The notes: a model not told the origin generated them from the sequence alone. Counted from the stretch's first letter, positions 628 to 24,785 are shown. The stretch is 64,000 nt of DNA from Dehalococcoidia bacterium (GCA_046484125.1 JAWOBX010000049.1:4437-68436); one strand, 5' to 3'. Program-made: numbers and translations.

Positions 628-639
628 ATAATATTACCT

Positions 640-5120: not shown

Positions 5121-5145
5121 ACTTACTTACTTCACTGTTAGTATA

Positions 5146-5592: not shown

Positions 5593-5626
5593 TGTTCAAC
5601 CTGTGATAAGTTGAAAGGAGAGACTG

Positions 5627-6181: not shown

Positions 6182-6709
6182 TTGACTGAGGCAACCTCTG
6201 AGACAACGGAAGAAGAGAAGAAACAGATAAACGGCCTGCTGAAAAACCTTGACCAGAAGTTTTCCAAAGACCGCAGGAATCTCATTCCGATACTGCAGGA
6301 AGCGCAAAGTCTGCTTGGATACCTTCCACATGAAGCCATGCAGGGAATTGCCGGGTTCCTTCGAATTCCGGCAATTGATGTATTCAGCGTGGTAACCTTC
6401 TATAACCAGTTCAGACTTAACCCGCCCGGTAAACACTCTATCAGAGTCTGTTTGGGCACAGCCTGTCATATTGCGGGCGGTAAAATAATTCTTGACTCGT
6501 GGAAAAGGCGGCTGAATATCGGTACGCGGGAAACTACCCCGGATCGTGGATTTGACCTTGACACTGTAGCGTGCGTTGGATGCTGCGCCATGGCGCCGGT
6601 AACGGTGATAGACGGGCAGGTCAACGGCAGGATAACTCCCACCAGAGTGGATGGCATCCTTCTCTCATACAAGATGGAGCAGGATAGCGAGAATGAGGAA
6701 AGCCGATGA
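6182..6709 (+). CDS. NuoE/HoxE-like [2Fe-2S] thioredoxin-fold subunit
   Basis: 175 aa, TTG start after GGAGAAGG; CLGTACHIAGG ... CVGCCAMAP; 4-nt overlap with the next gene. Confidence 0.8.
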   Translation: MTEATSETTEEEKKQINGLLKNLDQKFSKDRRNLIPILQEAQSLLGYLPHEAMQGIAGFLRIPAIDVFSVVTFYNQFRLNPPGKHSIRVCLGTACHIAGGKIILDSWKRRLNIGTRETTPDRGFDLDTVACVGCCAMAPVTVIDGQVNGRITPTRVDGILLSYKMEQDSENEESR

Positions 6710-9326: not shown

Positions 9327-10108
9327 CATACCAATCACTTCTCCTGGAAAAAGATAGCGGTCTGGCTACAGTCACGCTTAACAGGCCTGAGAAGATGAAC
9401 GCCATCTCTCCCGAACTGGTGGACGAATTGATTGAAGTGATAGATGAAACAGAGCGCGATGACGAAGTCCGCGCGGTACTGATTACCGGGGCGGGGAGGG
9501 CATTTTGCGCGGGAGGGGATGTCGAAACCCTTCTTTCCGGGACCGATAACCCGGCTGAAGTCTACAGCTCCAGCCTGAAGGGTGCCAAGATAATCTCCGG
9601 AATTAGAAACGCCTCCAACCCATGGATAGCGGCGGTCAATGGTCCGGCGGTCGGTGCCGGGTGTAATCTTGCTATCGGTTGTGATATTATAATTGCGGCC
9701 AGTAGCGCTACGTTCAGCCTGGCGTTCATGAAGCTCGGGTTGCACCCGGATACCGGGGGCATTTACCTGCCCACCCGATTGTTGGGCCCAGCTCGTGCGC
9801 TTGAGCTGGTTTTAACCGGTAAAACAATCGGAGCGGAAGAGGCTGAAAGAATAGGATTGATAAACCTGGTTGTACCGGATGATGAACTGGCGATCAGATC
9901 AAAAGAGATGGCACTAAAGCTGGCTCACGGTCCATCAAGGAGTATAGCGATGGCCAAGTCCAGCATCTATAGCGCCGCGAGTATGGATATGGAGTCGATA
10001 CTGGAGAGTGAAGCTCGTGCGATCAGTCTGACAATGGCAACAGACGATGCGCGAGAGGGAATAAGAGCTTTTCTGGAAAAGAGAAAGCCTCAGTTCAAAG
10101 GAAAGTAA
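9323..10108 (+). CDS. Enoyl-CoA hydratase/isomerase (crotonase family)
   Basis: LITGAGRAFCAGGDV oxyanion-hole motif; about 261 aa from in-frame ATG at 9323. Confidence 0.8.
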   Translation: MTYQSLLLEKDSGLATVTLNRPEKMNAISPELVDELIEVIDETERDDEVRAVLITGAGRAFCAGGDVETLLSGTDNPAEVYSSSLKGAKIISGIRNASNPWIAAVNGPAVGAGCNLAIGCDIIIAASSATFSLAFMKLGLHPDTGGIYLPTRLLGPARALELVLTGKTIGAEEAERIGLINLVVPDDELAIRSKEMALKLAHGPSRSIAMAKSSIYSAASMDMESILESEARAISLTMATDDAREGIRAFLEKRKPQFKGK

Positions 10109-10110
10109 TT

Positions 10111-10866
10111 TTGGCTGTCACGATAGTAACCGCGGGCAAGGGCGGAACGGGTAAGACGACCATAGCCGCTCTTTTAATTGATCTACTTTCGAAAAAAGGG
10201 ACCGTTCTGGCCGTCGACGCCGATCCAAGCACCAACCTCAACCTGGCGCTTGGAATGCCCGTGGAAGAAACAATCGGCAAGATCAGAGAGGATATGGCGG
10301 TGGCGGTCAAAAGCGGCACATACGATAACAGCGTATCCAAACCAGACTATATAGAGATGAAGATAATGGAGTCGCTGGTCGAGTCAGAGAAGGTGGATTT
10401 ACTTGCCATGGGGCGTCCGGAGGGGCCGGGGTGCTACTGCGCGGCAAACAACATGCTCAGGGCGTCAATTGACCGCCTGGGGAAGAATTATGATTACGTG
10501 GTAATTGATTGCGAAGCGGGCATGGAGCATGTGAGCCGCCAGACGACCAGGGATATAGATATATTGCTTATCGTCTCCGATCCTACCATAAGAGGTATTA
10601 TAGCCGCTTCGAGGATGAAACCTCTGATAAAAGAGATGAGGGCTAGGGTAGAGCAGATATGGCTGATAGTAAACAGGGTAGATGGAGATCTTCCTGAGGA
10701 AATACTGAACGCGGTAAAGGAAAACGAGCTTGACCTGCTGGCCAGCATCCCCGCGGACCCAAATCTGGCTGCACTTGAGTTGAAGGGTGAGCCCTCAATA
10801 AACCTTCCGGTGGAATCACCGTTGAAGACAGGGATAGCTGAGATCGCCGGTAAACTGGGACTTTGA
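10111..10866 (+). CDS. cooC: CooC/AcsF-type Ni-insertion ATPase for CO dehydrogenase (MinD/ParA family)
   Basis: Deviant Walker A AGKGGTGKTT; CooC-like length; GPGCYC motif typical of CooC metal site. Confidence 0.7.
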   Translation: MAVTIVTAGKGGTGKTTIAALLIDLLSKKGTVLAVDADPSTNLNLALGMPVEETIGKIREDMAVAVKSGTYDNSVSKPDYIEMKIMESLVESEKVDLLAMGRPEGPGCYCAANNMLRASIDRLGKNYDYVVIDCEAGMEHVSRQTTRDIDILLIVSDPTIRGIIAASRMKPLIKEMRARVEQIWLIVNRVDGDLPEEILNAVKENELDLLASIPADPNLAALELKGEPSINLPVESPLKTGIAEIAGKLGL

Positions 10867-10955
10867 GTCAATCAAGAGGCAAGTCCTCTTCAGATGCGTC
10901 GGCTTCCGAACGAGGCCATTACGAACATAAATACTTAAGGAAGGAGAAAAACAAC

Positions 10956-11882
10956 ATGGAAGTAATCGGAGAGAACATTCACATCATCTCCAAGCAGATC
11001 CGGGAGGCCGTTGACAATCGCGACAAAGGGTTTATTCAGGACCTGGCCAGAAAACAGCAGGAGGCAGGAGCCAAATTCCTGGACCTGAACATCGGTCCGC
11101 GGAAAAAGGATGGCGTGGAGGTCATGCAATGGATGGTTGAGACAGTCAAAGAGATAACAGATCTCCCTATCTCTCTGGATACCACCAATGCCGCTGCTAT
11201 TGAAGCCGGACTTAAGATGCTGCCGCCAAAAACCATAATAAACAGTACAAACGCCAACCCTGAAAGGATGCAGGTTCTCATGCCTATGGCGGCTGAGCAC
11301 GATGCGATGCTGATTTGCCTGACCTTGAGAGCCACCGGCCTGCCGGCTACGGCGGACGAGCGAGCCGAAATCGCCGCCACCGATCTGATGATGACCGCTA
11401 TGGAATACGGTCTGCCCATGGAGAATATCATATTCGATCCTCTGGCTATGACCGTCAATGGAACGCAGTCTCATGGCCCCGAGGTTATAAAGGCGACGCA
11501 GGTCATAAAATCGTTGAACGATCCGCCCTTCCTTACCACCTGCGGGCTTTCCAACGTCTCAAATTCCTGCCGTGACGAAGTTCGGCCCATTCTCAATCGA
11601 GTGTATGCCGCCATGCTGGCCGGAGCCGGGATGGACTGGCCGATCGCCGATGCTTTTGACCAGGAACTTCGTAAAGTAATTGACATAGTTAATAACCGTG
11701 ATGACTCAACACCGCTCAATAAGTTGTATCTTGCGCTGCATGATGCCTCGGCAGCGGGTGCCGCCGAGGAGTTTGATTTCAGCATCGTTGATCAGAATGA
11801 CCCCGAGCAGGTTGCTGTCATGAAAACCGCCAAGGTGCTGTTAAACCAGACGCTTTACGCTCACGGTTTTCTAAATCTCTAA
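10956..11882 (+). CDS. acsE: Methyltetrahydrofolate:corrinoid/iron-sulfur protein methyltransferase (pterin-binding, AcsE/MeTr)
   Basis: Matches, region by region, Moorella MeTr as I remember it: IGENIH..., FLDLNIGP, INSTNAN, GLPMENIIFDP, GLSNVSN. Strong RBS AAGGAAGGAG upstream of ATG 10956. Confidence 0.8.
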   Translation: MEVIGENIHIISKQIREAVDNRDKGFIQDLARKQQEAGAKFLDLNIGPRKKDGVEVMQWMVETVKEITDLPISLDTTNAAAIEAGLKMLPPKTIINSTNANPERMQVLMPMAAEHDAMLICLTLRATGLPATADERAEIAATDLMMTAMEYGLPMENIIFDPLAMTVNGTQSHGPEVIKATQVIKSLNDPPFLTTCGLSNVSNSCRDEVRPILNRVYAAMLAGAGMDWPIADAFDQELRKVIDIVNNRDDSTPLNKLYLALHDASAAGAAEEFDFSIVDQNDPEQVAVMKTAKVLLNQTLYAHGFLNL

Positions 11883-11949: not shown

Positions 11950-13656
11950 TTATCTTCCGAATTCCCTTTCCAAACGGGACAGGTCGAGACTGATGATAGA
12001 AGGCCTGCCATGGGGACATGTGCGGGGTGAGGCAGTCTCCTCAAGTTCCCTCAACAACTGTTCCATCTCCTGTAAACTGAGCGCCTGCCTCGCTTTGATA
12101 GCTCCGTGACACGCGAGTGAAGCCGCGATTCTCTCCATCGTCGAGCTGGTAAGTAGATCATCCAGGAAGTCTATCGTCTCCAGTAGAAAAGGAACTATCT
12201 CCTGCCGACTGAGAAACGCCGGAATTGCGCGTAAAAGATAGGTCCTCTCACCGAATTGCTCAATATCAAAACCTGATTCCCTCAGTTCATCCAGGTGAGT
12301 ACTGATGACCTCAGCCTGACTGGCTGTCAGGTCTACGCTGACAGGTTCAAGCAACCCCTGTACCTCTATGTTTGAATCTGCTTGTTGACGGCGGACCTTC
12401 TCAAAAAGGACCCTTTCATGCGCCGCGTGTTGATCGATGAGAAAAAGTCCGTCGGGGCCTTCAGCCAGTATATACGTCCCGTGAAATTGCCCGATAATGC
12501 GCAGTATGGGAAGATGAGTCGAGACTTCTCCGCGACTTACCTCTGTTAGTGCCTGTCTGGCCTGATAGGGTGTATGCCGTGCCGTTTCAGGTAACGGTAT
12601 CGGTGACGGAATGGCGTTCGAGGTCAGTTGGGTGCGCTCATTAATGGCGGGAACGACCGGTTTACCGATGAGCGCCTCGCGTACAGCTTTCTGAACCGTG
12701 GTGAAGATCGTCCCTTCATCACGGAACTTGACCTCGCGCTTGGTCGGGTGAACGTTTACATCAACTTCGCTCGATGGTATAAAGATGTTCAGAACTACTA
12801 CCGGATGTTTACCGGAGATGAGCATACCCCGATACGCTTCTTCAGCGGAGTAATTGAGCATACGGCTCTGCACCCATCTCCTGTTGACAAAAAAGCTCAG
12901 GTAATTGCGGTTCGAGCGTGATACTGTGGGCGGGCTTACGAACCCGGATAGTCGCACCGAATGGCCTTCCAGCAGGCCTTCATGGGAAAGCTCTATCATC
13001 GATTCCGCGATATCCAGTCCATACGCTTCAACAAGTACGTCCTTCAGACTGCCATTTCCTGGTGAGCGCAGAGTTGTCCGGCCATTTATTAAAAGTTCCA
13101 GCTTGACCTCCGGATAGGCCATACTGTACTGGGTAACCATGTGGCTTATATGACCGCTCTCAGTTGATGTTGACTTTAAGAACTTCAGTCGAGCCGGCAC
13201 GTTCTGAAACAGGTTTGTTACGGTTACAGTCGTGCCAGGCGGTGCGCCCTGTTTGCTGCGGCTCTTGATTACGCCGCTCTCCAGTTTTAGGCTGGTTCCT
13301 GCGACATCACCGGCGTTCCTTGTAATCAGTGAAACGTCGGAGACAGAAGCGATCGTTGGTAGCGCCTCGCCCCGGAATCCAAGAGTCGAAAGATTTTCGA
13401 TGTCGGCCTCGGAGCTTATCTTACTGGTGGCATGCCGATGGAAGGCCAGCTCTATCTCACCCTCAGCGATACCCGACCCGTTATCAGAAACGCGAATCAG
13501 ATCCTTTCCGCCTCCTTTGACTTCAATCGATATCTGAGTAGCGCCGGAATCAAGGGAATTCTCGATGAGTTCCTTTACGACGGAGGATGGCCGTTCAACC
13601 ACCTCACCGGCGGCGATTTTAGAGACAACGATAGGGGGTAGAGTCTGAATCGGCAA
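11950..13656 (-). CDS. mutL: DNA mismatch repair protein MutL
   Basis: N-terminal GHKL ATPase motifs (KELIENSLDSGA, DNGSGI); 568 aa. Confidence 0.9.
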   Translation of the reverse strand: MPIQTLPPIVVSKIAAGEVVERPSSVVKELIENSLDSGATQISIEVKGGGKDLIRVSDNGSGIAEGEIELAFHRHATSKISSEADIENLSTLGFRGEALPTIASVSDVSLITRNAGDVAGTSLKLESGVIKSRSKQGAPPGTTVTVTNLFQNVPARLKFLKSTSTESGHISHMVTQYSMAYPEVKLELLINGRTTLRSPGNGSLKDVLVEAYGLDIAESMIELSHEGLLEGHSVRLSGFVSPPTVSRSNRNYLSFFVNRRWVQSRMLNYSAEEAYRGMLISGKHPVVVLNIFIPSSEVDVNVHPTKREVKFRDEGTIFTTVQKAVREALIGKPVVPAINERTQLTSNAIPSPIPLPETARHTPYQARQALTEVSRGEVSTHLPILRIIGQFHGTYILAEGPDGLFLIDQHAAHERVLFEKVRRQQADSNIEVQGLLEPVSVDLTASQAEVISTHLDELRESGFDIEQFGERTYLLRAIPAFLSRQEIVPFLLETIDFLDDLLTSSTMERIAASLACHGAIKARQALSLQEMEQLLRELEETASPRTCPHGRPSIISLDLSRLEREFGR

Positions 13657-13939: not shown

Positions 13940-15493
13940 GTGAAAACCGTCTCTCAACGTTTGGAAGAGCTGCGCGAGCGCCGGGGAAAAGAACTGGCAA
14001 TGGGAGGCCCTGACCGGATAAACAAACAGCATGATTCAGGTAAGTTGACGGCAAGGGAAAGGCTCCACCTGCTATTCGATGAAGGAAGTTTCGTAGAAAC
14101 CGACATGTTCGTGAGGCACCGGTGTGACATGTTTGGCATGGAAAAAACATTCATTCCCGGCGAGGGAGTCGTCACCGGCTATGGGATGGTTGAAGGCAGA
14201 AAAGTATGCGCGTTCGCCCAGGACTTCACATCTACCGGTGGCACACTGGGTGAGATGCACGCTAAAAAGATATGCAAGGTAATGGACCTGGCCATGAAAA
14301 CAGGGTGCCCCCTCATAGGTCTGAATGACTCAGGCGGCGCGAGAATCCAGGAGGGCGTAGACGCGCTCAGCGGATACGGCGACATATTCTATCGGAACGC
14401 AATCGCCTCGGGCGTTATACCTCAAATATCCGCCATAATGGGGCCGAGCGCCGGAGGCGCCGTTTATTCGCCGGCAATGACGGACTGGATCTTCATGGTC
14501 AAGAAAACAAGCTATATGTTCATCACCGGCCCGGGAGTAATTAAAGAGGTGACCGGTGAAGAGATCACGTCAGAGGAACTTGGCGGCGCAATGTCCCACT
14601 CGACCAAGAGCGGGGTGTGCCATTTCGCCTGTGAAAGCGACGAGGACGCGATAGAGAAGGTAAAGGAGTTGCTCAGGTATCTGCCCAACAACAATATGGA
14701 AGACCCGCCCATGGTTCAAACGGAGGACGATCCGGACCGGACCGAACCCGGACTCGATACCTTAATCCCGGATAACCCCCAGCAGGTTTACGATATGAGA
14801 AAAGTAATTGAGGCGATAGTCGACAACGGGGTGACCGTCGAGCCTCATTATCATTATGCTAAAAACCTCATCGTTTGCTTCGCCCGCCTCAACGGCAGAG
14901 CGGTGGGGATCATCGCCAATCAGCCGATGCACCTGGCCGGTTGCCTCGACGTTGACGCCTCGGATAAACTCACCCGATTTGTCAGGTTCTGCGACGCCTT
15001 TAACATACCCATGCTCACCATCGCTGACGTCCCTGGATATCTCCCCGGCACCAATCAGGAGTGGTCGGGAATAATACGGCATGGCGCGAAGATACTCTGG
15101 TGCTATTCGGAGGCGACCGTTCCCAAAGTCACATTAATCACTCGGAAAGATTACGGTGGATCTTATCTGGCGATGTGCAGCAAGGCGCTTGGCGCTGATC
15201 TGACGTTCGCCTGGCCGACGGCCGAGATCGCTGTCATGGGAGCCCAGGGAGCTATCCCCATCCTTTATGGCAAAGAGATAAAAAAGGCGGAAGATCCCGA
15301 AGCGGTGAGGGCACAGAAGCTGGATGAATACAAGGATGCGTTGTACAACCCTTATATCGCGGCAGCCCGCGGACTGGTGGACGAGGTGATAATGCCCAGT
15401 GAAAGCAGGCCCAGGATAATCAATGCTTTCGAGATGCTCGATACCAAGCGTGAGGTAAGGCCACCGAAGAAGCACGGCAACATACCGGTATAG
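13940..15493 (+). CDS. Acyl-CoA carboxyltransferase, 12S-type (methylmalonyl-CoA carboxyltransferase / propionyl-CoA carboxylase beta family)
   Basis: 517 aa; typical N-terminal LEELRERR...GGPDRINKQHDSGKLTARERL and both carboxyltransferase halves. Confidence 0.85.
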   Translation: MKTVSQRLEELRERRGKELAMGGPDRINKQHDSGKLTARERLHLLFDEGSFVETDMFVRHRCDMFGMEKTFIPGEGVVTGYGMVEGRKVCAFAQDFTSTGGTLGEMHAKKICKVMDLAMKTGCPLIGLNDSGGARIQEGVDALSGYGDIFYRNAIASGVIPQISAIMGPSAGGAVYSPAMTDWIFMVKKTSYMFITGPGVIKEVTGEEITSEELGGAMSHSTKSGVCHFACESDEDAIEKVKELLRYLPNNNMEDPPMVQTEDDPDRTEPGLDTLIPDNPQQVYDMRKVIEAIVDNGVTVEPHYHYAKNLIVCFARLNGRAVGIIANQPMHLAGCLDVDASDKLTRFVRFCDAFNIPMLTIADVPGYLPGTNQEWSGIIRHGAKILWCYSEATVPKVTLITRKDYGGSYLAMCSKALGADLTFAWPTAEIAVMGAQGAIPILYGKEIKKAEDPEAVRAQKLDEYKDALYNPYIAAARGLVDEVIMPSESRPRIINAFEMLDTKREVRPPKKHGNIPV

Positions 15494-15494
15494 G

Positions 15495-15686
15495 ATGTCA
15501 ATCATGGAGGATAAGAAAAAGCTGTCAGCCATTACCGCTGCCATAAACGCCTACATCGAGGAAGAGTCAGCGCCTGGAATTCGAAAGCAACCTGTACCCG
15601 AGGTAAGCTTATGGAGGGCATCAGGACGGCAGGAGATAATGATGATGTCCAATCTATGGCAGCGTAGAATCGTACCGTTACGTTGA
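15495..15686 (+). CDS. Small hypothetical protein (63 aa) between the 12S and 5S genes; possible carboxylase-associated small subunit
   Basis: Tightly packed between two co-oriented genes; no TM segment; no family recognised. Confidence 0.3.
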   Translation: MSIMEDKKKLSAITAAINAYIEEESAPGIRKQPVPEVSLWRASGRQEIMMMSNLWQRRIVPLR

Positions 15687-15705
15687 ATCTGAAAGGAGCT
15701 TTTAA

Positions 15706-17670
15706 GTGAAGGGAATTAAAGAGGGCACGATTAAGGCCAGAGACCTTACCTCGGATAAAGTAAAGGAGAGGCCCAAACAGCCCAATCCTGTCAAAATATG
15801 TGATACCACTCTTCGCGACGGACATCAATCCCTGCTGGCCACCCGCATGCGCACCGAGGATATGGAATACGTGGCGGAGGAAATCAGCAAATGCGGCTTT
15901 CATGCCGTCGAGGTATGGGGAGGCGCCACATTCGATGTTCCGCACAGGTACCTGGGGGAGGATCCGTGGGAACGCCCCAGAACCCTGAAAAAACTGATTC
16001 CCGATACCCCTTTTCAAATGCTGCTGAGGGGACAGAACATCGTTGCCTATCGCAATCACCCGGATGACCTGGTAGACGCCTTCGTCGAGCAGGCGGCGGA
16101 AGTCGGGATCGATATTTTCCGCGTCTTCGACGCTGTTAACGACGAGCGAAATATGGAAAGAGCCGGAAAGGCGGTCAAAAAGGTAGGTAAGCATTTCCAG
16201 GGAACGGTATGCTATTCACTGACCCAGCCGCGTATGGGCGGTCCTGTATACAACGTCGACTTTTATGTAAACAAGGCGATCACTCTCCAGAACATGGGCG
16301 CCGATTCGATTTGCATCAAGGATCAGGCCGGACTGATATCACCGTATGACGCGTTCGAACTGATAAAGGCGCTTAAGAAAGCTTTGAGTATACCGGTGGA
16401 ATTGCACACCCACTACACCAGCGGACAGGCCTCTATGTCATATCTAAAAGCGATTGAGGCTGGTGTCGATATCATCGATACAGCGATATCGCCGTTTGCT
16501 TTGCGAACATCCCAGCCCGCGATAGAGCCATTGATAGTTGCCCTCTACGGAACCGAAAGGGATACCGGTCTCGATGTTGAGCAGATATTCAAGGTCGCGC
16601 AGATGCTCGAGGAAATAGCTCCCAAATACCGCGATTTCCTTGATACGTCTTCAATGTCGGTAATCGATTCCGGCGTGCTGGTCCACCAGATACCCGGCGG
16701 GATGACCAGCAATCTTGTATCTCAGCTCAGGCAAGCGGGCTCGCTTGATAAGCTGGCGGAAGTGCGAGCCGAAACCGCCAGAACACGCGCTGAACTGGGT
16801 TACCCGCCCCTCGTAACACCCACAAGCCAGCTGGTAGGTGTTCAGGCTGTCCAAAACGTGCTTGGCGGAAGATACAATATGATAGCCAAAGAGACCAGGG
16901 ACTATTGCTATGGACTCTACGGCAAGCCGCCGGCTCCTATTGATAAAAACGTGCAGAAGGCTATTCTGAAAGGATATGAACGGGGAGAAAAACCCATTAC
17001 GGGAAGGGCCGCGGACGAACTGGAGCCCGAACTGGAAAAAGCCAGGGAGGAATCAAAGGAATTTGCCCGAAACGATCAGGACGTACTCCTGTATGCTATG
17101 TTTCCTACCACAGGCGCCAGGTTCCTGAAGTATAAGTACGGGATTGATAAGACAATACCTCCCGACTGGAAACCGCCAAGCGCTCCAAAGACACTGGAAG
17201 AGGTCAGACGGGAGGACGATTTGATCGCGAAGGCTAAAGCCGGCGAATTGACTGAGAAAAAAGAAGCGCCGCCGAAAGGAGGCGGAGTCAGAACCTTCAA
17301 TGTGTATATAGGTGACGAGTTTTACGAGGTTGATGTTGAGCCGGTGGGCAATGCCCCAGTTGCGGTCAATCAGTCCGTAAGGTCCCAGCCGGCACCACCC
17401 ACGGATGCCGGAGCCCAAAAGCCGGAAACTCCTTCGGTAACTGCGAGCGTTGAAGGAGAGCCGGTTGTCGCGCCGATGCCCGGCATGATTATAAATTACA
17501 CTGTAAATGTCGGTGATAAAGTATCGGCGGGTGACCCGCTGGTAATACTCGAGGCCATGAAGATGCAGAACACTATTTCAGCTCCGGTCGGAGGTACCAT
17601 TGCCTCTATCAACTGCAAGCCGGGGGCGAATGTCGCCAGAGAAGATGTTCTGGCAGTGATAAAGTCGTGA
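15706..17670 (+). CDS. Pyruvate/oxaloacetate carboxyltransferase 5S-type subunit fused to C-terminal biotin carboxyl carrier domain (PycB/OadA-like)
   Basis: ICDTTLRDGHQS TIM-barrel carboxyltransferase motif; C-terminal biotinyl-lysine motif EAMKMQN; Ala/Pro-rich linker. Confidence 0.85.
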   Translation: MKGIKEGTIKARDLTSDKVKERPKQPNPVKICDTTLRDGHQSLLATRMRTEDMEYVAEEISKCGFHAVEVWGGATFDVPHRYLGEDPWERPRTLKKLIPDTPFQMLLRGQNIVAYRNHPDDLVDAFVEQAAEVGIDIFRVFDAVNDERNMERAGKAVKKVGKHFQGTVCYSLTQPRMGGPVYNVDFYVNKAITLQNMGADSICIKDQAGLISPYDAFELIKALKKALSIPVELHTHYTSGQASMSYLKAIEAGVDIIDTAISPFALRTSQPAIEPLIVALYGTERDTGLDVEQIFKVAQMLEEIAPKYRDFLDTSSMSVIDSGVLVHQIPGGMTSNLVSQLRQAGSLDKLAEVRAETARTRAELGYPPLVTPTSQLVGVQAVQNVLGGRYNMIAKETRDYCYGLYGKPPAPIDKNVQKAILKGYERGEKPITGRAADELEPELEKAREESKEFARNDQDVLLYAMFPTTGARFLKYKYGIDKTIPPDWKPPSAPKTLEEVRREDDLIAKAKAGELTEKKEAPPKGGGVRTFNVYIGDEFYEVDVEPVGNAPVAVNQSVRSQPAPPTDAGAQKPETPSVTASVEGEPVVAPMPGMIINYTVNVGDKVSAGDPLVILEAMKMQNTISAPVGGTIASINCKPGANVAREDVLAVIKS

Positions 17671-17784
17671 TGATCTATCGGTTATAATACGGAGCGCCAG
17701 CTATTAATGATCCAACTTATTCCCGATAAGTGCGGAAGTCAGACGATAATTGCTGGATAAACGTGAATTTATGGAGGTAGAAGG

Positions 17785-18711
17785 ATGAGAAGCAAGGTCT
17801 CGATAATAGGCGCTGGTAACGTGGGGGCAACCTGCGCCTTCAGGATTGCCGAATGGGGGTATTCCGACGTTGTGCTGGTCGATATAATCGAGGGCATGCC
17901 GCAGGGAAAAGGCCTGGATATGCTGGAGGCCACTCCGATATTGGGTTCGGACATAACTGTAACAGGCACAAACAGCTACGAGGAAACGGCTAACTCTGAT
18001 ATCGTGGTTATAACATCGGGTATAGCCAGAAAACCGGGGATGAGCCGGGATGATCTGGTTCTTACCAATACAAAAATTGTACAGGAAGTCACTGAAAACG
18101 TTGTCAAAAACTCGCCTGACTGCATCATAATTGTGGTATGTAATCCGCTTGACGCCATGGCTCAACTGGCGTTACATGTCAGCAAGTTCCCGAAGAACAG
18201 GGTCTTCGGGCAGTCAGGAGTTCTGGACAGCGCCCGATTTCGCACGTTCATCGCCCAGGAACTTAAGGTTTCTGTTAAGGATGTGTTCACCTGCGTCCTC
18301 GGTGGCCATGGTGATACGATGGTTCCGGTCATAAGTCTCTGTACCGTGGGAGGAATTCCCATTACCGAGCTCTTGCCGAAGGATAAGATTGATGAGATGG
18401 TAAAGCGCACCGTCAATGGTGGTGCCGAGATCGTAAACCTGCTAAAAACCGGGAGCGCTTTCTATGCCCCAGGCGTGGCTACGGCTCAAATGGTGGAAGC
18501 GGTATTACTCGACCAGAAAAAAATACTGCCGTGCTCTACACTGCTTGAGGGAGAATATGGAATAAACGGTGTATTCGCGGGCATCCCGTGTAAGCTGGGT
18601 AAGGATGGTGTCGAGCAGATTGTTGAATTGAAGCTCTCGGATGACGAGAACGCCGGCTTGAAGAAATCCGCCGAGGCTGTCCGGGAGTTACTCAACGTTA
18701 TGGGGATCTAG
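17785..18711 (+). CDS. mdh: Malate dehydrogenase (LDH-like family)
   Basis: [11 protein letters not shown] Rossmann motif, 308 aa, MDH-type substrate residues. Confidence 0.85.
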
Positions 18712-18818
18712 CGCTCGAAAAAGCATACCGCCAAAAATACGAGGGCCTGATTCCCTTTGAGAGAGGGGAACAGGCCTTTCAATTGTTAAGACTTCTCGTT
18801 GTCGAGCAGGAGAGATAA

Positions 18819-19664
18819 ATGAGAGATATAAACACAGGTGATGTAACAGCGACTGTGTCTAGATTATGTAAAGAGGCCAATTTCTACCTCGGTGATGATG
18901 TCCGTTCAGCCCTCCAGAGGGCAAAGGATTCGGAGAAGTCAGAGATCGGCAAAGAGGTGATAGAACAAATCCTGAAAAACGCCGATATAGCCGCCAGTGA
19001 ACAAATACCGTTGTGCCAGGATACCGGCCTGGCGGTGGTGTTCCTGGATATAGGGCAGGATGCCCATATCTCAGGCGGCGATCTCTATCAGGCAGTGGAG
19101 GAGGGGATAAGGAAGGGTTACGAGGAAGGCTTTCTCAGAAAATCTGTGGTCGAACATCCATTTTCGACACGTGATAATTCCAGAGACAACACACCACCGG
19201 TTATCCACACCCGAATAGTTTCTGGTGATCGATTGAAGGTGATCGTAGCACCGAAAGGCGGCGGCAGCGAGAATATGAGCAGGGTAACGGTGCTCAAGCC
19301 CGCTCAGGGACGCCGGGGTATTATAGACTACGTGGTCCAGGTCGTAGTTGAAGCCGGCAGCAATCCATGTCCGCCATTGATAATAGGAGTTGGTATAGGG
19401 GGCACCATCGAGCAAACGGCCCTTATAGCCAAAAGATCGCTGCTTCGCGAAGTGGGCAAGCCCAATCCCGACCCCGAGATCGCCGAGCTGGAGACCGAAC
19501 TTCTGCAGCGGATCAACGAATCCGGCGTAGGGCCTCAGGGATTTGGGGGAACCTCCACAGCGCTCGCCGTTCATATAGAGACCTATCCAGCCCACATAGC
19601 AAGTATGCCGGTGGCTGTCAATATCCAGTGTCATAGCGCGAGGCACAAGGAAGCTGTATTGTAA
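18819..19664 (+). CDS. Class I (Fe-S) fumarate hydratase, alpha subunit (N-terminal domain)
   Basis: 281 aa; CQDTGLAVVF and 4Fe-4S hydro-lyase alpha-type cysteines. Confidence 0.8.
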   Translation: MRDINTGDVTATVSRLCKEANFYLGDDVRSALQRAKDSEKSEIGKEVIEQILKNADIAASEQIPLCQDTGLAVVFLDIGQDAHISGGDLYQAVEEGIRKGYEEGFLRKSVVEHPFSTRDNSRDNTPPVIHTRIVSGDRLKVIVAPKGGGSENMSRVTVLKPAQGRRGIIDYVVQVVVEAGSNPCPPLIIGVGIGGTIEQTALIAKRSLLREVGKPNPDPEIAELETELLQRINESGVGPQGFGGTSTALAVHIETYPAHIASMPVAVNIQCHSARHKEAVL

Positions 19665-19682
19665 GGTTGTAAGGTAAAAACC

Positions 19683-20081
19683 ATGAAAAAGATCAATCCG
19701 AAAAAGACCGACTTTATCCAGAGGATTAACGCTATAAGCGGCCAGAATGCTGGACAGTGTTACCAGTGCGGTACCTGCTCAGCGGCGTGCCCTAACGCGG
19801 AAGATCTGGACTTGCTGCCCAGACAAATAATGAGGCGGACGCAACTGGGTATGGAGGCAGATGTCAAGAATGCCACGGCCCCCTGGATATGCGCTTCGTG
19901 CCTTTCATGTACGATTCGTTGCCCTAGGGGAATAGACCTGGCAAGGGTTATGGAAGCCATAAGGCTTCTTAAACTGAGGGATAATGTGGATTATGTCAAT
20001 CCAAGAGAGCTTTCGCTCGAGGTACTGGAGGATTTGCCTCAAATCGCGCTGATAAGCAGTTTTAGAAAACACACAGCCTGA
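19683..20081 (+). CDS. HdrC-like 2x[4Fe-4S] ferredoxin-type subunit
   Basis: CYQCGTCSAACP and CASCLSCTIRCP motifs; 132 aa. Confidence 0.7.
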   Translation: MKKINPKKTDFIQRINAISGQNAGQCYQCGTCSAACPNAEDLDLLPRQIMRRTQLGMEADVKNATAPWICASCLSCTIRCPRGIDLARVMEAIRLLKLRDNVDYVNPRELSLEVLEDLPQIALISSFRKHTA

Positions 20082-20091
20082 GGAATGAGAA

Positions 20092-20982
20092 ATGAAGTTG
20101 AACTATCTGCCGGGATGTACACTGAAAACCAGAGCCACAGAGCTTGATACGACCACAGTTGCCGCCATGGAGAAGCTTGGTATCGAGCTTGAGGAACTTC
20201 CCAGGTGGAACTGTTGCGGCACAGTCTATTGCTTCGCCGAAGATGACTTGATGCACCAGATAGCGCCCGTCCGTAATCTCATCAGAGCCCAGGAGCAGGG
20301 TGGTGGCAAGCTGGTGACCGTGTGCTCATTCTGTTATAACACCCTTAAACGCGCCAGTCTGTTAATGGAAAATGACGAGGAGAAGCTCAACATCCTGAAT
20401 GATTTCATGGATGAAGAGCCTGACTACACCAGAAGCGTAAGTGTGGTTCACCTACTCGAGTTAATTCGTGATGATATTGGCTGGGAAGAGGTGGCCAGAC
20501 ATGTCGAGAATCCCCTGAAAGGACTTAAGGTTGCGCCCTACTATGGGTGCACTCTCCACAGGCCGAAGGAGGCGGCGATTGAGCCCGCCGATAATCGAAC
20601 CGTGTTGCCCGACCTGCTCAAGACTCTGGGGGCTGACGCTGTTAAATTCCCGGACGAGGACAAGTGTTGCGGGTCTTATCAGGTGGTAGCTAATCCGCAA
20701 ATACCCTTGAACCGCGCGAGAGAGATACTTAATTCGGCTCGTGAAAAAGGTGCCGAGGTTCTCTGCGTGAGTTGTCCTCTTTGTGAATGCAACTTGAGGC
20801 AAATGCAAATAAAACTCAGGGAAGAAGAGGGATTCAGGGAACTCCCTATAATCTATTTCACGCAGCTTATGGCGCTGGCCTTCGGTCTGGAGTCCAGCCT
20901 GTGTCAATGCGAAGCCTCAGTGGCTGACGCGAGCCCGGTTCTCGAAAACAAGGGAATTCTACCCGCACGATCAAAGGCTTGA
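20092..20982 (+). CDS. HdrB/SdhE-like subunit with two cysteine-rich CCG domains
   Basis: CCG-type motifs NCCGTVY...CSFC and KCCGSYQ...CPLCECN; 296 aa. Confidence 0.75.
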   Translation: MKLNYLPGCTLKTRATELDTTTVAAMEKLGIELEELPRWNCCGTVYCFAEDDLMHQIAPVRNLIRAQEQGGGKLVTVCSFCYNTLKRASLLMENDEEKLNILNDFMDEEPDYTRSVSVVHLLELIRDDIGWEEVARHVENPLKGLKVAPYYGCTLHRPKEAAIEPADNRTVLPDLLKTLGADAVKFPDEDKCCGSYQVVANPQIPLNRAREILNSAREKGAEVLCVSCPLCECNLRQMQIKLREEEGFRELPIIYFTQLMALAFGLESSLCQCEASVADASPVLENKGILPARSKA

Positions 20983-21106
20983 GAGAGTCTGGTTAACCTT
21001 TGAAAACTGGTAAAGCGGTGATATATCACGGAACTGAGGGCAGGTTTTTTTGCGCAAGGTCGGCTGAGTCGCAGCACCAGTAGTTTGCGACGAGGGATCA
21101 TAAACT

Positions 21107-21895
21107 ATGGAGGATACCACTGTGGAAGAGCAAATTGCAGCGGTTGAGACAAGAATGATACCAATATTCATAATGGGGAAGAGATATGATGTCCCTGAGG
21201 GACTGACCATAATGAAGGCGCTGGAATATGCCGGGTATCAATACATACGGGGATGTGGGTGCCGGGGGGGCATATGCGGCGCCTGCGGAACGATTTACCG
21301 CAAGCCGGGCGATTACAAAATATACAGCGCGCTTGCCTGTCAGACAGCCGCCGAACCGAACATGTATTTGACCCAGTTGCCGTTCTTTCCGGCAAATCAT
21401 GTCGCATGTAATTACGAGGAACTTGCGGGAAAACCGGAGGAGATTTACAAACTGTACCCTGAGTTGTTCAGATGCGTAGCATGCAACGCGTGCAGCAAGA
21501 TATGCCCGATGGATGTTCCCGTTATGGACATAATATCCTACATCAAACAGGGTAATATTGAAAAAGCTGCCTTTGAATCCTTCGATTGTATCCAGTGCGG
21601 TCTCTGTACCAGCCGCTGCTTTGCGGAGGCACCTCAGTACCATATCATGCAGCTGGCCAGGCGTTTATATGGAGGCAAGCTGGCGCCACAGGCCAAACAT
21701 AACGCCCGTGCGGCTCAGGCTGTTAAATACGAACATAAGTTCAATGATATGCTGGATGAACTGAAAAAGATGAGCGTCGATGAGTTGAAGAAAACCTATA
21801 CGGAAAGGGAGATAGAGCCCGAGACAGCGGGAGAGGATTGGCAACCAAAGGACTTCAGATTCCTGCTAGATGATTTCAAGAAACAGGCAGTGTAA
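21107..21895 (+). CDS. Succinate dehydrogenase/fumarate reductase iron-sulfur subunit (SdhB-like)
   Basis: N-terminal 2Fe-2S plant-ferredoxin-like fold (CGCRGGICGACG) plus two 4Fe-4S motifs (CVACNACSKICP, CIQCGLCTSRC). Confidence 0.75.
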   Translation: MEDTTVEEQIAAVETRMIPIFIMGKRYDVPEGLTIMKALEYAGYQYIRGCGCRGGICGACGTIYRKPGDYKIYSALACQTAAEPNMYLTQLPFFPANHVACNYEELAGKPEEIYKLYPELFRCVACNACSKICPMDVPVMDIISYIKQGNIEKAAFESFDCIQCGLCTSRCFAEAPQYHIMQLARRLYGGKLAPQAKHNARAAQAVKYEHKFNDMLDELKKMSVDELKKTYTEREIEPETAGEDWQPKDFRFLLDDFKKQAV

Positions 21896-21905
21896 GGAGA
21901 AGGAT

Positions 21906-23579
21906 ATGGCTTACCCGGAGAGTTTAAGAAACCTCATTAAGAAAGTGGAGGAGACCAGACCGGAGCGAGTGGAAAAGAAGAAAGCCGGCATCGAAGTGCC
22001 CATGCTGTCGCTCGATGAACGGAGTGAAATCCTTGAGAATTTTCACCCCGATTATATTCCAGGGACAAGAAGAGATCTCAGGGTGGGGCCAAGTAAGGGG
22101 TACGCTGTGGCTCACGAGTTCGCCGATCTTCTTGAATCGAAAAGCCGGGTCGATCCTGACAGGGTGGATCTCACAAAGATTGATTACGAGACCGATGTAC
22201 TGGTGATCGGTGGAGGCGGTGCCGGAACGGCCGCGGCCCTGCTCGCTCAGGAAAACGGCGCTAAAGTTATTATCGCTACCAAACTGCGGCATGGAGACGC
22301 AAACACCATGATGGCGGAAGGGGGCATACAGGCAGCCGACAAGCTCTGGAAGGATTCGCCCGCCTATCACTATCTTGACACCATCGGAGGCGGCCATTTT
22401 ACCAATGATCCTGACCTTGCCGCCAGGCTGGTAACCGAGGCTCCTGATGTTCTGAACTGGCTTGAAAGACTCGGTATGATGTTCTGGAAGAATTCCGATG
22501 GCACCATGGACACTTTGCCGGCAGCGGGATTCAGTCGCAGCCGACTGCACTATTCCGGGGATATAACCGGCGCGGAGATAATGCGTGTGATCAGAGATGA
22601 AGCCAGAAACCGGAAAGATGATATCACCGTGCTCGAGTTCTGCCCGGCAGTAGACCTTATACTCGACGAGAACGGCCAATGCGCCGGCGCGCTTATGTAC
22701 AATCTGGATACCGAAGAATACTTCATAATCAAAGCCAAAGCTACCGTAATAGCTACAGGGGGTTCAGGCAGGCTTCACGTTCAGGGATTCGTCACTACAA
22801 ATCACTACGGAGCAACAGCCGACGGTATAGTCCTCTCATATCGAGCCGGCATACCGCTTAAATTCCTTCATACATTGCAGTATCATCCCACTGGCTGTAT
22901 ATTCCCCGAGCAGCTCGAAGGTTTGCTCATAACCGAGAAGTTCAGGGCCGCCGGAGCCAATGTACTCAATGTCGACGGCGAGCAGTTTGTATACGAACGC
23001 GAGCCAAGAGATATTGAAGCAGCAGCGTACATCAGGGAATGCGCTGAGCGGGGCAAGGGTGTTCCAACTCCTACGGGGAAACAGGGTATATGGCTTGACT
23101 CTCCCATGCTGGACCTGATTCACTGGGAGGGATATGTCAGGAAAGAGTTTCCCGGCAAGTGTAAGCAGTTCGGAAGGCACGGGATTGACATATCCAGGGA
23201 GCCTATGCTTGTATATCCAACACTCCATTATCAAAACGGTGGTGTGGAGTTTAAGGCATCGGGCGAGACGAGTATACCGGGACTTTACCTCGCCGGTGAG
23301 GTTGGGGGAGGTATACATGGTGAGAATCGGCTGATGGGTAACTCGCTGCTCGATATCCTGGTGTTCGGCAGGATATCGGGTGAGAACGCCGCGATATATG
23401 CCAGAGAGCACTCAGAGTCAGGAAAACTGAGCCTGGAACATGTGAGAGCATACAACCGGGAAGTGGATGAGGCCGGCATTGAAACTGACATCGTCTCTCC
23501 GATGTTGCTTCCAAATTACACCAGTCCGGAGGTAAGGGAAAGGCAGCTGAGTTCAAAATATGTTGGCAATCTAAGATAA
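21906..23579 (+). CDS. Succinate dehydrogenase/fumarate reductase flavoprotein subunit with about 100 aa N-terminal extension
   Basis: VLVIGGGGAGTAAA FAD Rossmann; RHGDANTMMAEGGIQA covalent-FAD-type His motif; about 557 aa from ATG 21906 after GGAGAAGG. Confidence 0.8.
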   Translation: MAYPESLRNLIKKVEETRPERVEKKKAGIEVPMLSLDERSEILENFHPDYIPGTRRDLRVGPSKGYAVAHEFADLLESKSRVDPDRVDLTKIDYETDVLVIGGGGAGTAAALLAQENGAKVIIATKLRHGDANTMMAEGGIQAADKLWKDSPAYHYLDTIGGGHFTNDPDLAARLVTEAPDVLNWLERLGMMFWKNSDGTMDTLPAAGFSRSRLHYSGDITGAEIMRVIRDEARNRKDDITVLEFCPAVDLILDENGQCAGALMYNLDTEEYFIIKAKATVIATGGSGRLHVQGFVTTNHYGATADGIVLSYRAGIPLKFLHTLQYHPTGCIFPEQLEGLLITEKFRAAGANVLNVDGEQFVYEREPRDIEAAAYIRECAERGKGVPTPTGKQGIWLDSPMLDLIHWEGYVRKEFPGKCKQFGRHGIDISREPMLVYPTLHYQNGGVEFKASGETSIPGLYLAGEVGGGIHGENRLMGNSLLDILVFGRISGENAAIYAREHSESGKLSLEHVRAYNREVDEAGIETDIVSPMLLPNYTSPEVRERQLSSKYVGNLR

Positions 23580-23657
23580 GCTTAAACGTTGTTTTTTTTG
23601 CATTCCAAATAGTTAACGGAAATTCTGATCCGGGTGGTTAACCAATGAGGAGGGTGT

Positions 23658-24215
23658 ATGGCACTTCGAATCAGTTCCCCGATCGATTCCACGACAATCG
23701 ACAAGTTGAAAGCGGGCGACCAGGTGGTTATCAGCGGCACTCTTTACGTCGCCAGGGATGCGGCGCACAAACGAATGATTGAGGCGCTTGAGATGGGAGA
23801 GGGCCTCCCATTTGATATATCAGGCCAGACTATATACTATATGGGTCCCTCACCAGCTAAACCAGGTCAGGTAATCGGCGCGGCGGGGCCAACCACAAGC
23901 GGAAGGATGGACGCTTACGCGCCAAGACTGATGGAGGCAGGCCTTAAAGCTATGATTGGTAAAGGTCTCCGCTCTGATGAAGTCAAGAATGCCATGAGGA
24001 AGCATAAGGCCGTTTACCTTGCTGCCATCGGGGGGGCGGGAGCGCTTATCTCAAAGAGCATAAAAAGCTCCGAGATCGTGGCCTACGAGGACCTTGGAGC
24101 CGAGGCGCTGCGAAAGCTTGAGATTGAGGATTTCCCGGCCACGGTTATCAACGACATTCACGGGGGAGACCTGTACCAGGAAGGTAAAGCCAGGTACCGG
24201 GTGCCGGCGGGCTGA
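23658..24215 (+). CDS. Class I (Fe-S) fumarate hydratase, beta subunit (C-terminal domain)
   Basis: 185 aa; GPTTSGRMD ... AIGGAGAL beta-subunit signature. Confidence 0.8.
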   Translation: MALRISSPIDSTTIDKLKAGDQVVISGTLYVARDAAHKRMIEALEMGEGLPFDISGQTIYYMGPSPAKPGQVIGAAGPTTSGRMDAYAPRLMEAGLKAMIGKGLRSDEVKNAMRKHKAVYLAAIGGAGALISKSIKSSEIVAYEDLGAEALRKLEIEDFPATVINDIHGGDLYQEGKARYRVPAG

Positions 24216-24242: not shown

Positions 24243-24785
24243 TTACGGCATCTCCAGTCGGCCGACCGCGATTTTCAGAAGTCCGGCGACACTCTTAGCG
24301 TCACATATTTCGCCGCTGAAAATCATTTGAAGAGCCTCATTCAGTGATACGAGAAGAACATCCGATATTTCATCGTCATCAGTATTGCTCTCCTCGCGTT
24401 TCAAATCAGTGGCCAGGAACAGGTGCAGATACTCGGTGGAGTAACCGGGACCCGCGTAAAACCCTCCAAGTTGCTCTATATTGCCGGCTGAGTAACCCGT
24501 CTCCTCCTCGAGTTCACGGATAGCGCACTCCAGGGGCGACTCACCAGGTTCCCTTTTGCCGGCGGGAACTTCAATAAGCGAATCCCCAACGGCTGTCCGG
24601 AACTGTTTGACAAGTATCACGTTATCATAAGCGTTAATGGCTACTACTACGACAGAGTCGGTATGTTCCACGATCTCACGAGTTGTTCGCCTCCCTGAAG
24701 GAAGCTCAACTGAGTCGACTCTGAGGTTTATCATCCTTCCCTGATAAACCGGATTGCTCTCCAATACCCTCTCGCCTCTTACCAT
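24243..24785 (-). CDS. NUDIX hydrolase (ADP-ribose pyrophosphatase-like)
   Basis: Nudix box GKREPGESPLECAIRELEEETGY. Confidence 0.8.
   Translation of the reverse strand: MVRGERVLESNPVYQGRMINLRVDSVELPSGRRTTREIVEHTDSVVVVAINAYDNVILVKQFRTAVGDSLIEVPAGKREPGESPLECAIRELEEETGYSAGNIEQLGGFYAGPGYSTEYLHLFLATDLKREESNTDDDEISDVLLVSLNEALQMIFSGEICDAKSVAGLLKIAVGRLEMP

Follow-up and report, generated by a model that had tools for sequence, protein, structure and literature searches.

Organization of the operon

We describe a run of ten genes, at positions 13940-24215 of a 64-kb stretch of DNA from a Dehalococcoidia metagenome-assembled genome (MAG), which encodes transcarboxylase-type subunits, a malate dehydrogenase (MDH), both subunits of a class I fumarase and an anchorless enzyme related to fumarate reductase (Frd) that is accompanied by homologs of the heterodisulfide reductase (Hdr) subunits HdrB and HdrC. 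The whole 64-kb stretch is referred to here as the window; its annotation with Pfam and NCBIfam covered the ten open reading frames (ORFs) of the operon and around 60 others, while related loci in other genomes carry L-numbers (L001, L003, L062, L070 and so on). The ORF listing and the domain matches agree with the first-pass annotation of this DNA, which had placed ten consecutive plus-strand genes at these coordinates. They share one orientation and are bordered by a MutL gene (11950-13656, minus strand) and a NUDIX gene (24243-24785, minus strand). The genes, in their order, and a hairpin in one of the spacers are as follows.

13940..15493, plus strand: 12S-type carboxyltransferase (methylmalonyl-CoA/propionyl-CoA); PF01039, 658 bits
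15495..15686, plus strand: conserved 63-aa protein; frame and motifs kept between 12S and 5S in L001 and L062
15706..17670, plus strand: 5S-type pyruvate/oxaloacetate carboxyltransferase with a C-terminal biotin carrier (5S-BCCP), 654 aa; HMGL-like, PYC_OADA and Biotin_lipoyl domains
17785..18711, plus strand: NAD-dependent MDH; TIGR01763 MalateDH_bact, 464 bits, over the cutoff of 352
18741-18779, plus strand: 17-bp hairpin in the MDH-FumA spacer; minimum free energy of the spacer -35 kcal/mol, z = -3.1; weak U-tract after it
18819..19664, plus strand: class I (Fe-S) fumarase alpha subunit, FumA; PF05681, 380 bits; NF004885, 407 bits, over the cutoff
19683..20081, plus strand: HdrC-like protein, 132 aa, two [4Fe-4S]; eight Cys, two CxxCxxCxxxCP motifs
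20092..20982, plus strand: HdrB-like protein, 296 aa, two CCG domains; PF02754 twice
21107..21895, plus strand: FrdB-analogous Fe-S subunit (FeS subunit), 262 aa; N-terminal [2Fe-2S] motif and two [4Fe-4S] motifs
21906..23579, plus strand: FrdA-like flavoprotein, predicted catalytic subunit, 557 aa; FAD_binding_2
23658..24215, plus strand: class I fumarase beta subunit, FumB; PF05683, 202 bits; NF005310, 276 bits, over the cutoff

The hairpin between MDH and FumA recurs at the same position in L001 (L001:6802-6890), where the outer stem is kept and the inner stem is different yet paired (z = -4.7). This conserved element is a possible terminator, attenuator or stabilizer, and may mark off a transcarboxylase-MDH unit of the operon from a fumarase-Frd unit. 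Scans for promoter and terminator consensus sequences across the operon gave results at chance level, and the Rfam scan found nothing within it. The flavoprotein is 100% identical to a GenBank entry named "MAG: FAD-binding protein [Dehalococcoidia bacterium]" and the names of its operon neighbors are equally generic; pathway-reconstruction pipelines will therefore miss the fumarate reductase step.

The flavoprotein subunit

The predicted catalytic subunit most likely starts at 21906 rather than at 21870, since a ribosome-binding site precedes this position and GenBank and all homologs agree with it. Its fold matches that of SdhA/FrdA over around 450 columns (E = 1e-27), and in an alignment with E. 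coli SdhA, M. smegmatis Sdh1/Sdh2 and human SDHA the dicarboxylate-site residues H327, R347, H441 and R475 (numbering of the 557-aa protein) are kept. These four residues and a GGGGAG Rossmann motif at position 102 are invariant in the family. The position of the covalent-FAD histidine (His45 of E. coli SdhA) is occupied by Asn133, which is itself invariant across 29 diverse homologs, and the FAD is predicted to be non-covalently bound. His129, four residues before Asn133, was considered as an alternative covalent site and rejected, as it varies in the same 29-sequence alignment.

The N-terminal extension of around 95 residues is conserved and confidently folded (AlphaFold predicted TM-score 0.83), and is without counterpart in the solved structures of SdhA and FrdA. 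An exhaustive search with the extension alone gave 310 representatives, in which it always lies at the N-terminus of the target and is followed by the Rossmann motif wherever the target is long enough and in frame; many of these representatives are fragments or frameshifted, and the result hints weakly that the extension is exclusive to this flavoprotein family. The best-scoring curated model is that of TfrA, the flavoprotein of thiol:fumarate reductase (NF004900; 331 bits against a cutoff of 718), with positions 6-416 of 546 aligned. The first-pass label 'SdhA-like' is apt for the fold and the catalytic residues, but the protein falls in a divergent subfamily, in which the leading model is TfrA below its cutoff and the C-terminal domain of SdhA (Succ_DH_flav_C) is missing by Pfam. 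Identity as an L-aspartate oxidase was rejected in view of the obligate FeS partner and the fumarase, MDH and SucCD neighbors.

The FeS, HdrB-like and HdrC-like subunits

The FeS subunit combines an SdhB-style C-x4-C-x2-C...LAC motif with a CxxCxxCxxxCP and a CxxCxxCxxxC motif, and 13 of its cysteines are invariant in 22 homologs. Its scores on the SdhB and TfrB models are 25-26 bits, far under the cutoffs, and its PDB matches are generic ferredoxin domains. The term 'SdhB-like', also proposed at first pass, can be retained for the cysteine motifs and the constant adjacency to the flavoprotein, homology aside, but finds no backing in the model scores.

The two proteins encoded upstream are, judged by their sequences, true homologs of the methanogen HdrB and HdrC, with complete cluster motifs. 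The HdrC-like protein scores 75 bits on TIGR03290 (cutoff 160) and 68 bits against HdrC (7bkb_C). The HdrB-like protein matches M. wolfeii HdrB (5odc_B) over its full length with 136 bits and both CxnCCGxmCxxC motifs intact; it scores 148 bits on the HdrB model, under the equivalog cutoff, and 125 bits on the SdhE anchor model NF042965, for which the cutoff is 500. No HdrA is encoded in the operon or the window. The reductase had been described at first pass as lacking a membrane anchor and having separate HdrC and HdrB proteins instead, and a membrane-anchor subunit in the same operon had been named in advance as evidence against that description; no such subunit is found among the ten proteins. 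A transmembrane-grade segment is absent from all ten, the highest 19-residue Kyte-Doolittle mean (1.69) falling in the Rossmann core of MDH. Because the FeS-flavoprotein pair has no CCG domain, HdrB must contact the electron-transfer chain directly, as a thiol-oxidizing site or as a relay.

Distribution and gene neighborhoods of the cassette

Species-representative genomes were scanned with two motifs around the conserved Asn, one of them KLRHGDAN. The FeS-flavoprotein pair was found in at least 595 loci across many anaerobic phyla, and the best 80 of these were studied. All 80 come from MAGs, assigned to Dehalococcoidia, Thermodesulfobacteriota (including Syntrophaceae, Syntrophobacteraceae and Desulfomonilaceae), Syntrophorhabdus, Gemmatimonadota, KSB1, Zixibacteria, Fermentibacteria, Aminicenantes, Ignavibacteriales, Holophagae and others. 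By tblastn and all-against-all clustering of ORFs, the FeS gene lies immediately 5' of the flavoprotein gene in at least 59 of the 80; the sole other recurrent neighbors are HdrB, HdrC, an HdrA-like protein (27 loci), MvhD (20 loci) and a 382-aa Fe-S protein (15 loci). HdrB and HdrC stand together beside the cassette in at least 45. The architectures are distributed as follows.

Compact HdrC-HdrB-FeS-flavoprotein, the type of the window: 29-30 of the 80 loci
HdrA-linked cassette: about 26 of the 80 loci, 16 of them also with MvhD
Cassette followed by DsrO/NrfC-like and DsrP/NrfD-like membrane-module genes: 6 of the 80 loci
Uninformative or other architecture: the remainder

The identity of HdrA at the linked loci is supported by 733-815 bits on the HdrA/HdrA2 models; in L003, for example, the order is HdrA-HdrC-HdrB-tandem HdrA-MvhD-FeS-FeS-flavoprotein-SucC-SucD. 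The FeS-flavoprotein pair is a portable catalytic cassette, which is combined with three electron-input modules: HdrCB alone, HdrABC-MvhD and an NrfCD-type membrane module.

At ten or more loci the cassette has genes for fumarase, MDH or succinyl-CoA synthetase in its vicinity. The module is flanked by fumarase genes in the window, L001, L062 and L070, and MDH/FumAB or SucCD genes adjoin it in L052, L054, L056 and L003. This company, together with the invariant dicarboxylate-site residues, argues for fumarate/succinate as the substrate. The split arrangement, with fumA and fumB on either side of the reductase module, is specific to Dehalococcoidia. The Dehalococcoidia loci L062 (3240-6939) and L070 (495-2805) hold genes for a GlcD-type FAD dehydrogenase, a Fer4-MvhD protein resembling the C-terminus of HdrA2, and the lactate racemase LarA between 5S-BCCP and FumA, with no MDH there, which suggests a route for electrons from lactate to fumarate in these operons.

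Some loci depart from these patterns. In L049 (12434-14062), and also in L042, L044, L057, L058 and L009, all of the Desulfomonilaceae type, the pair is found without nearby HdrCB, and the genes after it encode DsrO/NrfC/TtrB-like and DsrP/NrfD-like proteins, a membrane quinol module. Multihaem cytochrome c genes lie upstream in L069. L004 and L052 belong to one MAG, S_237_B13 (Thermodesulfobacteriota), which therefore encodes the flavoprotein family twice, each time in another architecture: one copy is HdrA-linked, and the second adjoins genes for PrpD/MmgE, LacI, MDH, FumA, FumB, HdrC, HdrB and an HdrA-like protein.

Comparison of the reductase with known systems

The reductase works like TfrAB, succinate:quinone oxidoreductases (SQR) of type E and HdrABC, but belongs to none of them. 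The first-pass annotation had called it reminiscent of thiol:fumarate reductase or type-E SQR; the resemblance is sound and is in line with how the literature treats similar clusters (PMC3570798, PMC6315080), but membership in either class does not follow from it.

Methanothermobacter TfrAB likewise reduces fumarate as a soluble enzyme, its CCG/HdrB-type clusters supplying an FeS chain and an FrdA-like flavoprotein. The domains of TfrB lie on a single polypeptide; in the window they are distributed over the FeS and HdrB-like subunits, with an added HdrC that has no counterpart in Tfr. We consider it unlikely that the operon encodes a bacterial thiol:fumarate reductase, a TfrAB split in four, whose HdrB would draw the electrons for fumarate from a dithiol carrier, be it a DsrC-like protein, a lipoyl protein or a low-molecular-weight thiol. 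The parts do add up to TfrA plus TfrB, with a flavoprotein, one [2Fe-2S] and two [4Fe-4S] clusters and two CCG domains, TfrA is the best-scoring model of the flavoprotein, and the active-site cysteine motifs of HdrB are complete; related bacterial genes have moreover been named tfrAB, with a DsrC-like shuttle proposed for them (PMC6315080, PMC11636981). On the other hand, the TfrA score is less than its cutoff by a wide margin and the TfrB model (NF004898) gives 23-30 bits against a cutoff of 385. The flavoprotein also differs from TfrA in its N-terminal extension and short C-terminus; these scores, the split subunits and the different termini set the enzyme apart from TfrAB. The substrates CoM-SH and CoB-SH are not expected in a Chloroflexota bacterium, no genes of a CoM/CoB pathway were seen in the operon or the window, and neither contains a candidate thiol-carrier gene.

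The type-E SQRs and methylmenaquinol:fumarate reductases (MFR), such as Sulfolobus SdhABCD and Campylobacter MfrABE, share with the window the lack of a haem or transmembrane subunit and the presence of an extra, HdrB-like CCG subunit. Type-E enzymes contain 8-alpha-N3-histidyl covalent FAD, and oxidize succinate or use quinols at the membrane. It is possible, if doubtful, that the operon encodes a peripheral menaquinol:fumarate reductase resembling these enzymes, in which the HdrB-like protein would take the role of SdhE, attach to the membrane surface and receive electrons from quinol. Its 125 bits on the SdhE anchor model are in keeping with such a role, as is the second CxxCxxCxxxC motif of the FeS subunit, which stands at the place of the canonical [3Fe-4S] motif of SdhB; in type-E enzymes a second [4Fe-4S] motif replaces [3Fe-4S], a likeness that in the window protein is seen at the level of the motif only. 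The NrfCD-linked variant shows that the cassette can connect to the quinone pool, and the FrdABEF enzyme of Syntrophobacter fumaroxidans has been classed as type E (PMC3570798). These points have to be set against a flavoprotein without the FAD histidine, where type-E SdhA carries covalent FAD, and against a fourth subunit that is an HdrC-type di-cluster protein rather than SdhF; for these two reasons we do not assign the enzyme to the type-E SQRs. The HdrB-like protein also scores higher on the HdrB model (148) and on the solved HdrB (136) than on SdhE (125), an anchor that is hydrophobic or clearly amphipathic is missing from the operon proteins, and in many relatives, about 26 of the 80 loci, the cassette is connected to soluble HdrA/MvhD. 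HdrABC itself offers the two CCG motifs of HdrB and the two [4Fe-4S] of HdrC, but its bifurcating subunit HdrA is missing in the window, and the enzyme is therefore not an HdrABC complex.

Comparable in layout is S. fumaroxidans FrdABEF (Sfum_4092-4095), a 'type E' Frd of four genes and no anchor, in which FrdE is Cys-rich, FrdF has Fe-S clusters and FrdB lacks the [3Fe-4S] motif (PMC3570798). On fumarate its abundance is 11-45-fold higher (PMC8691401), and in methanogenic coculture it is almost missing (PMC5947623). Syntrophobacteraceae MAGs carry the compact HdrC-HdrB-FeS-flavoprotein module at around 60% identity; FrdABEF differs in lying outside any transcarboxylase/fumarase operon. In Ca. 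Endoriftia persephone and Thioflavicoccus mobilis, tfrAB genes are interspersed with flxABCD-hdrABC and have been proposed to take bifurcated electrons (PMC6315080, PMC11636981). As far as the descriptions allow a likeness to be drawn, this anchorless FrdAB-type pair with HdrABC follows the same logic as the HdrA-MvhD-linked loci L003 and L013, while it differs from the window in its reductive tricarboxylic acid (rTCA) context and its use of Flx as NADH input, the window having neither HdrA nor Flx.

The Hydrogenobacter thermophilus enzyme FrdABCDE of Miura et al. 2008 is reportedly encoded by five dispersed genes, including one for an NAD(P)H-binding subunit; the operon contains no gene for such a subunit. 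This soluble, NADH-dependent enzyme is the only purified multi-subunit soluble bacterial Frd in a reductive pathway, and several recent genome surveys, one of them from 2026, flag anchorless or 'incomplete' Frds with unexplained electron donors (PMC13147460). Clusters similar to that of the window had been noticed before (FrdABEF, "TfrAB"), none of them purified; what is new is the operon context in Dehalococcoidia.

The probable transcarboxylase genes

The gene features of methylmalonyl-CoA:pyruvate transcarboxylase (EC 2.1.3.1) are present at the 5' end of the operon: a 12S protein, a 5S protein and a biotinyl-lysine carrier domain, here fused to the C-terminus of 5S. The domains and an AMKM motif at residues 617-620, with Lys619 as the predicted biotinyl-lysine, bear out the first-pass description of this set and of its 5S/carrier fusion. 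From their sequences, we regard the substrate classes of the two proteins (methylmalonyl-/propionyl-CoA for 12S, pyruvate/oxaloacetate for 5S-BCCP) as secure. The assignment between families is less sharp. The 12S protein scores 881 bits on TIGR01117 (mmdA), under the cutoff of 999, and its PDB matches are PccB (1vrg, 678 bits), an archaeal MmdA-like protein (1x0u, 656 bits) and P. shermanii 12S (1on3, 617 bits); 5S-BCCP matches PycB (5ks8_C, 479 bits), OadA (2nx9, 424 bits) and transcarboxylase 5S (1rqb, 420 bits), and has 485 bits on the 5S equivalog model NF008984, under the cutoff of 827.

Since sequence cannot separate transcarboxylase subunits from the PccB/MmdA and PycB/OadA relatives, the call depends on context; the arrangement proposed at first pass is supported, but the proteins themselves do not discriminate. 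That context consists of adjacent carboxyltransferases with a carrier, the absence of any carboxylase or pump subunit in the 64 kb, and the linkage to MDH, fumarase and Frd. Neither the operon nor the rest of the window encodes a biotin carboxylase (ATP-grasp) or OadB/MmdB, as had been stated for the biotin carboxylase at first pass. The 12S gene stands next to that of 5S-BCCP in three Dehalococcoidia lineages (the window, L001 and L062). We infer transcarboxylase activity from these features, and hold it to be very unlikely that the 12S and 5S-BCCP proteins are instead parts of ATP-dependent carboxylases (propionyl-CoA or two-subunit pyruvate carboxylase) or of Na+-pumping decarboxylases with partners elsewhere. 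Such an origin would suit the leading PDB and NCBIfam matches, which are PccB/MmdA and PycB/OadA rather than the P. shermanii subunits, and the view of the genome is that of one contig. It fits poorly with carboxyltransferase genes that three lineages keep side by side around a conserved small gene, with the lack of an ATP-grasp or OadB/MmdB gene, and with an operon linkage of the kind that a transcarboxylase pathway requires.

The small gene between the two subunits is, on the evidence of its conservation, real. Motifs common to the ORFs of L001 and L062 are AAITAA(I/V)NAY..EE and SGRQE(I/M)M..LWQRRIV; the protein matches no Pfam or NCBIfam family, and is probably left unannotated in GenBank, because its exact sequence is missing from the protein collection. 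We propose that it may be a small structural subunit of the carboxyltransferase complex.

Compared with the transcarboxylase of Propionibacterium freudenreichii (shermanii), which consists of 12S, 5S and 1.3S subunits, the window has homologous 12S, 5S and biotin carrier and likewise no ATP-grasp subunit. It differs in the fusion of the carrier to 5S, as in PycB/OadA, in the 63-aa protein encoded between the subunits, and in subunits whose similarity to PccB/MmdA and PycB/OadA is at least as high. This set of genes is accepted as a propionyl-CoA:oxaloacetate transcarboxylase in the mmc cluster of the syntroph Pelotomaculum thermopropionicum (PTH_1356-1369), where transcarboxylase, malate dehydrogenase and two-subunit fumarase genes are also clustered (PMC6046458). 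In addition, the Pelotomaculum cluster has genes for epimerase, mutase, succinyl-CoA synthetase and POR, and it lacks Sdh/Frd (PMC6046458); its pathway is oxidative and employs separate membrane-bound Sdh enzymes, whereas the reductase of the window lies inside the operon between fumA and fumB.

Proposed pathway, direction and electron route

Our analysis suggests, with a rough probability of 0.65, that the ten genes specify the methylmalonyl-CoA (Wood-Werkman) pathway's arm from oxaloacetate to succinate, operating in the direction of fumarate reduction. In this model an ATP-independent biotin transcarboxylase would transfer the carboxyl group of (S)-methylmalonyl-CoA to pyruvate, giving propionyl-CoA and oxaloacetate; MDH would reduce oxaloacetate to malate and the two-subunit Fe-S fumarase would dehydrate malate to fumarate, which a cytoplasmic four-subunit enzyme would reduce to succinate at a non-covalently bound FAD. 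Electrons would pass from the HdrB-like protein, with two non-cubane clusters, and the HdrC-like protein, with two [4Fe-4S], to the [2Fe-2S] and two [4Fe-4S] of the FeS subunit and on to the FAD. Gene content, cofactor motifs, catalytic residues, the lack of an anchor and the conserved neighborhoods are seen in the sequences; the direction of flux and this order of transfer are inferred. The compact form may draw its electrons from menaquinol at the surface of the membrane, from a thiol/disulfide carrier or from a docking module of the HdrA, NuoEF or dehydrogenase type.

The reductive direction is favored for three reasons. In SdhA relatives with non-covalent FAD, loss of the covalent bond drops the FAD potential by around 90-150 mV, so that fumarate is reduced and succinate oxidation is impossible (PMC9557727); the covalent-FAD histidine is invariantly Asn in the family described here. 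The sister operons L062 and L070 carry lactate-utilization genes, which fits a lactate-to-propionate fermentation, and the probable counterpart FrdABEF is abundant on fumarate. The first-pass annotation had allowed for either propionate fermentation or syntrophic propionate oxidation; the pathway it named is supported, with the fermentative direction favored over the oxidative one.

Oxidative operation, in syntrophic or sulfidogenic propionate oxidation, is rather unlikely on this evidence. The enzyme would then be an Hdr-linked succinate dehydrogenase, with Hdr coupling to confurcation or to a thiol/disulfide acceptor. The transcarboxylase, MDH and fumarase set is that of the mmc cluster of propionate oxidizers (PMC6046458). 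The window has two NuoEF modules and an FdhA-like gene of the kind that syntrophs typically use for electron disposal, and the flavoprotein family is frequent in MAGs of Syntrophobacteraceae, Syntrophaceae and Syntrophorhabdus. Confurcating succinate with ferredoxin towards NAD+ is thermodynamically poor; the established redox potential for succinate is +33 mV. The lactate-utilization genes of the sister operons and the invariant Asn also speak for reduction, and S. fumaroxidans oxidizes succinate via a membrane-bound SdhABC, while methanogenic coculture shows hardly any of its FrdABEF (PMC5947623).

Several observations weigh against the reductive pathway model that we prefer. The operon spans only part of the methylmalonyl-CoA pathway, because methylmalonyl-CoA mutase, epimerase, succinyl-CoA synthetase and CoA transferase are missing from it; none of the four is encoded in the 64-kb window, nor in the flanks of L001 and L062. 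The 12S and 5S proteins are no closer to true transcarboxylase subunits than to PccB/MmdA and PycB/OadA, and the search for biotin carboxylase and OadB-type partners covered 64 kb. The non-covalent state of the FAD is a prediction from the primary structure, and the AlphaFold 2 model of the FeS subunit is poor (mean predicted local distance difference test, pLDDT, 54), while its best Foldseek match in the PDB, to generic [2Fe-2S] domains, is non-significant at E = 0.06. The prevalence of the flavoprotein family in the syntrophic lineages named above keeps an oxidative role conceivable. The link to FrdABEF is descriptive, a search with a Syntrophobacter-MAG flavoprotein having returned no S. 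fumaroxidans-named match in its top 120, and the Hdr-linked reductase family is without biochemical characterization, no member having been assayed.

More tentatively, and with considerable doubt, we suggest that the cassette, marked by a predicted non-covalent FAD and by an N-terminal domain peculiar to the family, could be the catalytic core of a widespread class of Hdr-coupled fumarate reductases, in which fumarate takes the place of heterodisulfide as the high-potential acceptor. The HdrABC-MvhD forms would then represent a new flavin-based bifurcation (donor, fumarate and oxidized ferredoxin), and the compact HdrCB of Dehalococcoidia would dock soluble dehydrogenases, such as the GlcD-type lactate dehydrogenase/MvhD pair of L062, to give a cytoplasmic, quinone-independent substrate:fumarate oxidoreductase.

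Propionate metabolism and the reductive TCA cycle have their energetic bottleneck in fumarate reduction/succinate oxidation. To this the survey adds a single conserved catalytic pair in which the covalent-FAD histidine is uniformly missing, present in at least 595 loci and served by three electron-input modules. If the enzyme is Hdr-coupled, fumarate would join heterodisulfide as an Hdr-type acceptor in bacteria, and the energy-yield estimates for fermenters, syntrophs and rTCA autotrophs would shift. The class Dehalococcoidia is better known for organohalide respiration; the operon points to a propionate- or succinate-forming fermentation in this group, possibly from lactate.

Other genes in the window

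The two NuoEF-type modules that the first-pass annotation had reported were both located. One (6182-8631, plus strand) consists of a stand-alone NuoE and a long NuoF-like protein (641 aa), with no adjacent catalytic partner; directly upstream, at 3843-6013, are genes for a GAF histidine kinase and two receiver-only response regulators. The other (640-1119 and 3-629, minus strand) lies beside an FdhA-like gene (1157-3544, minus strand), whose NuoG-fused product aligns with positions 1-592 of a 672-position Fdh-alpha model, the C-terminal molybdopterin-binding part apparently missing. The FdhA-like and NuoE/NuoF-like genes may together specify a formate dehydrogenase, NAD-linked or confurcating, that is truncated or unusual.

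The genes at 9257-11882, which separate the NuoEF pair from MutL, encode an enoyl-CoA hydratase, a CooC/CbiA-type ATPase and a pterin-binding (methyltransferase-like) protein; they hint that functions related to the Wood-Ljungdahl pathway may be encoded nearby. A second protein of the Hdr type, HdrD-like with Fer4 and two CCG domains (367 aa), is found in a cluster that runs from 41827-42930 (minus strand) to 45188-45934 (minus strand), where its partners are metallo-beta-lactamase-fold, radical SAM, CGGC-domain, DnaJ-domain and MetF-C-terminal-like DUF5981 proteins. Two divergent tRNA genes, at 56231-56305 (minus strand) and 56439-56510 (plus strand), are the sole Rfam matches in the window.

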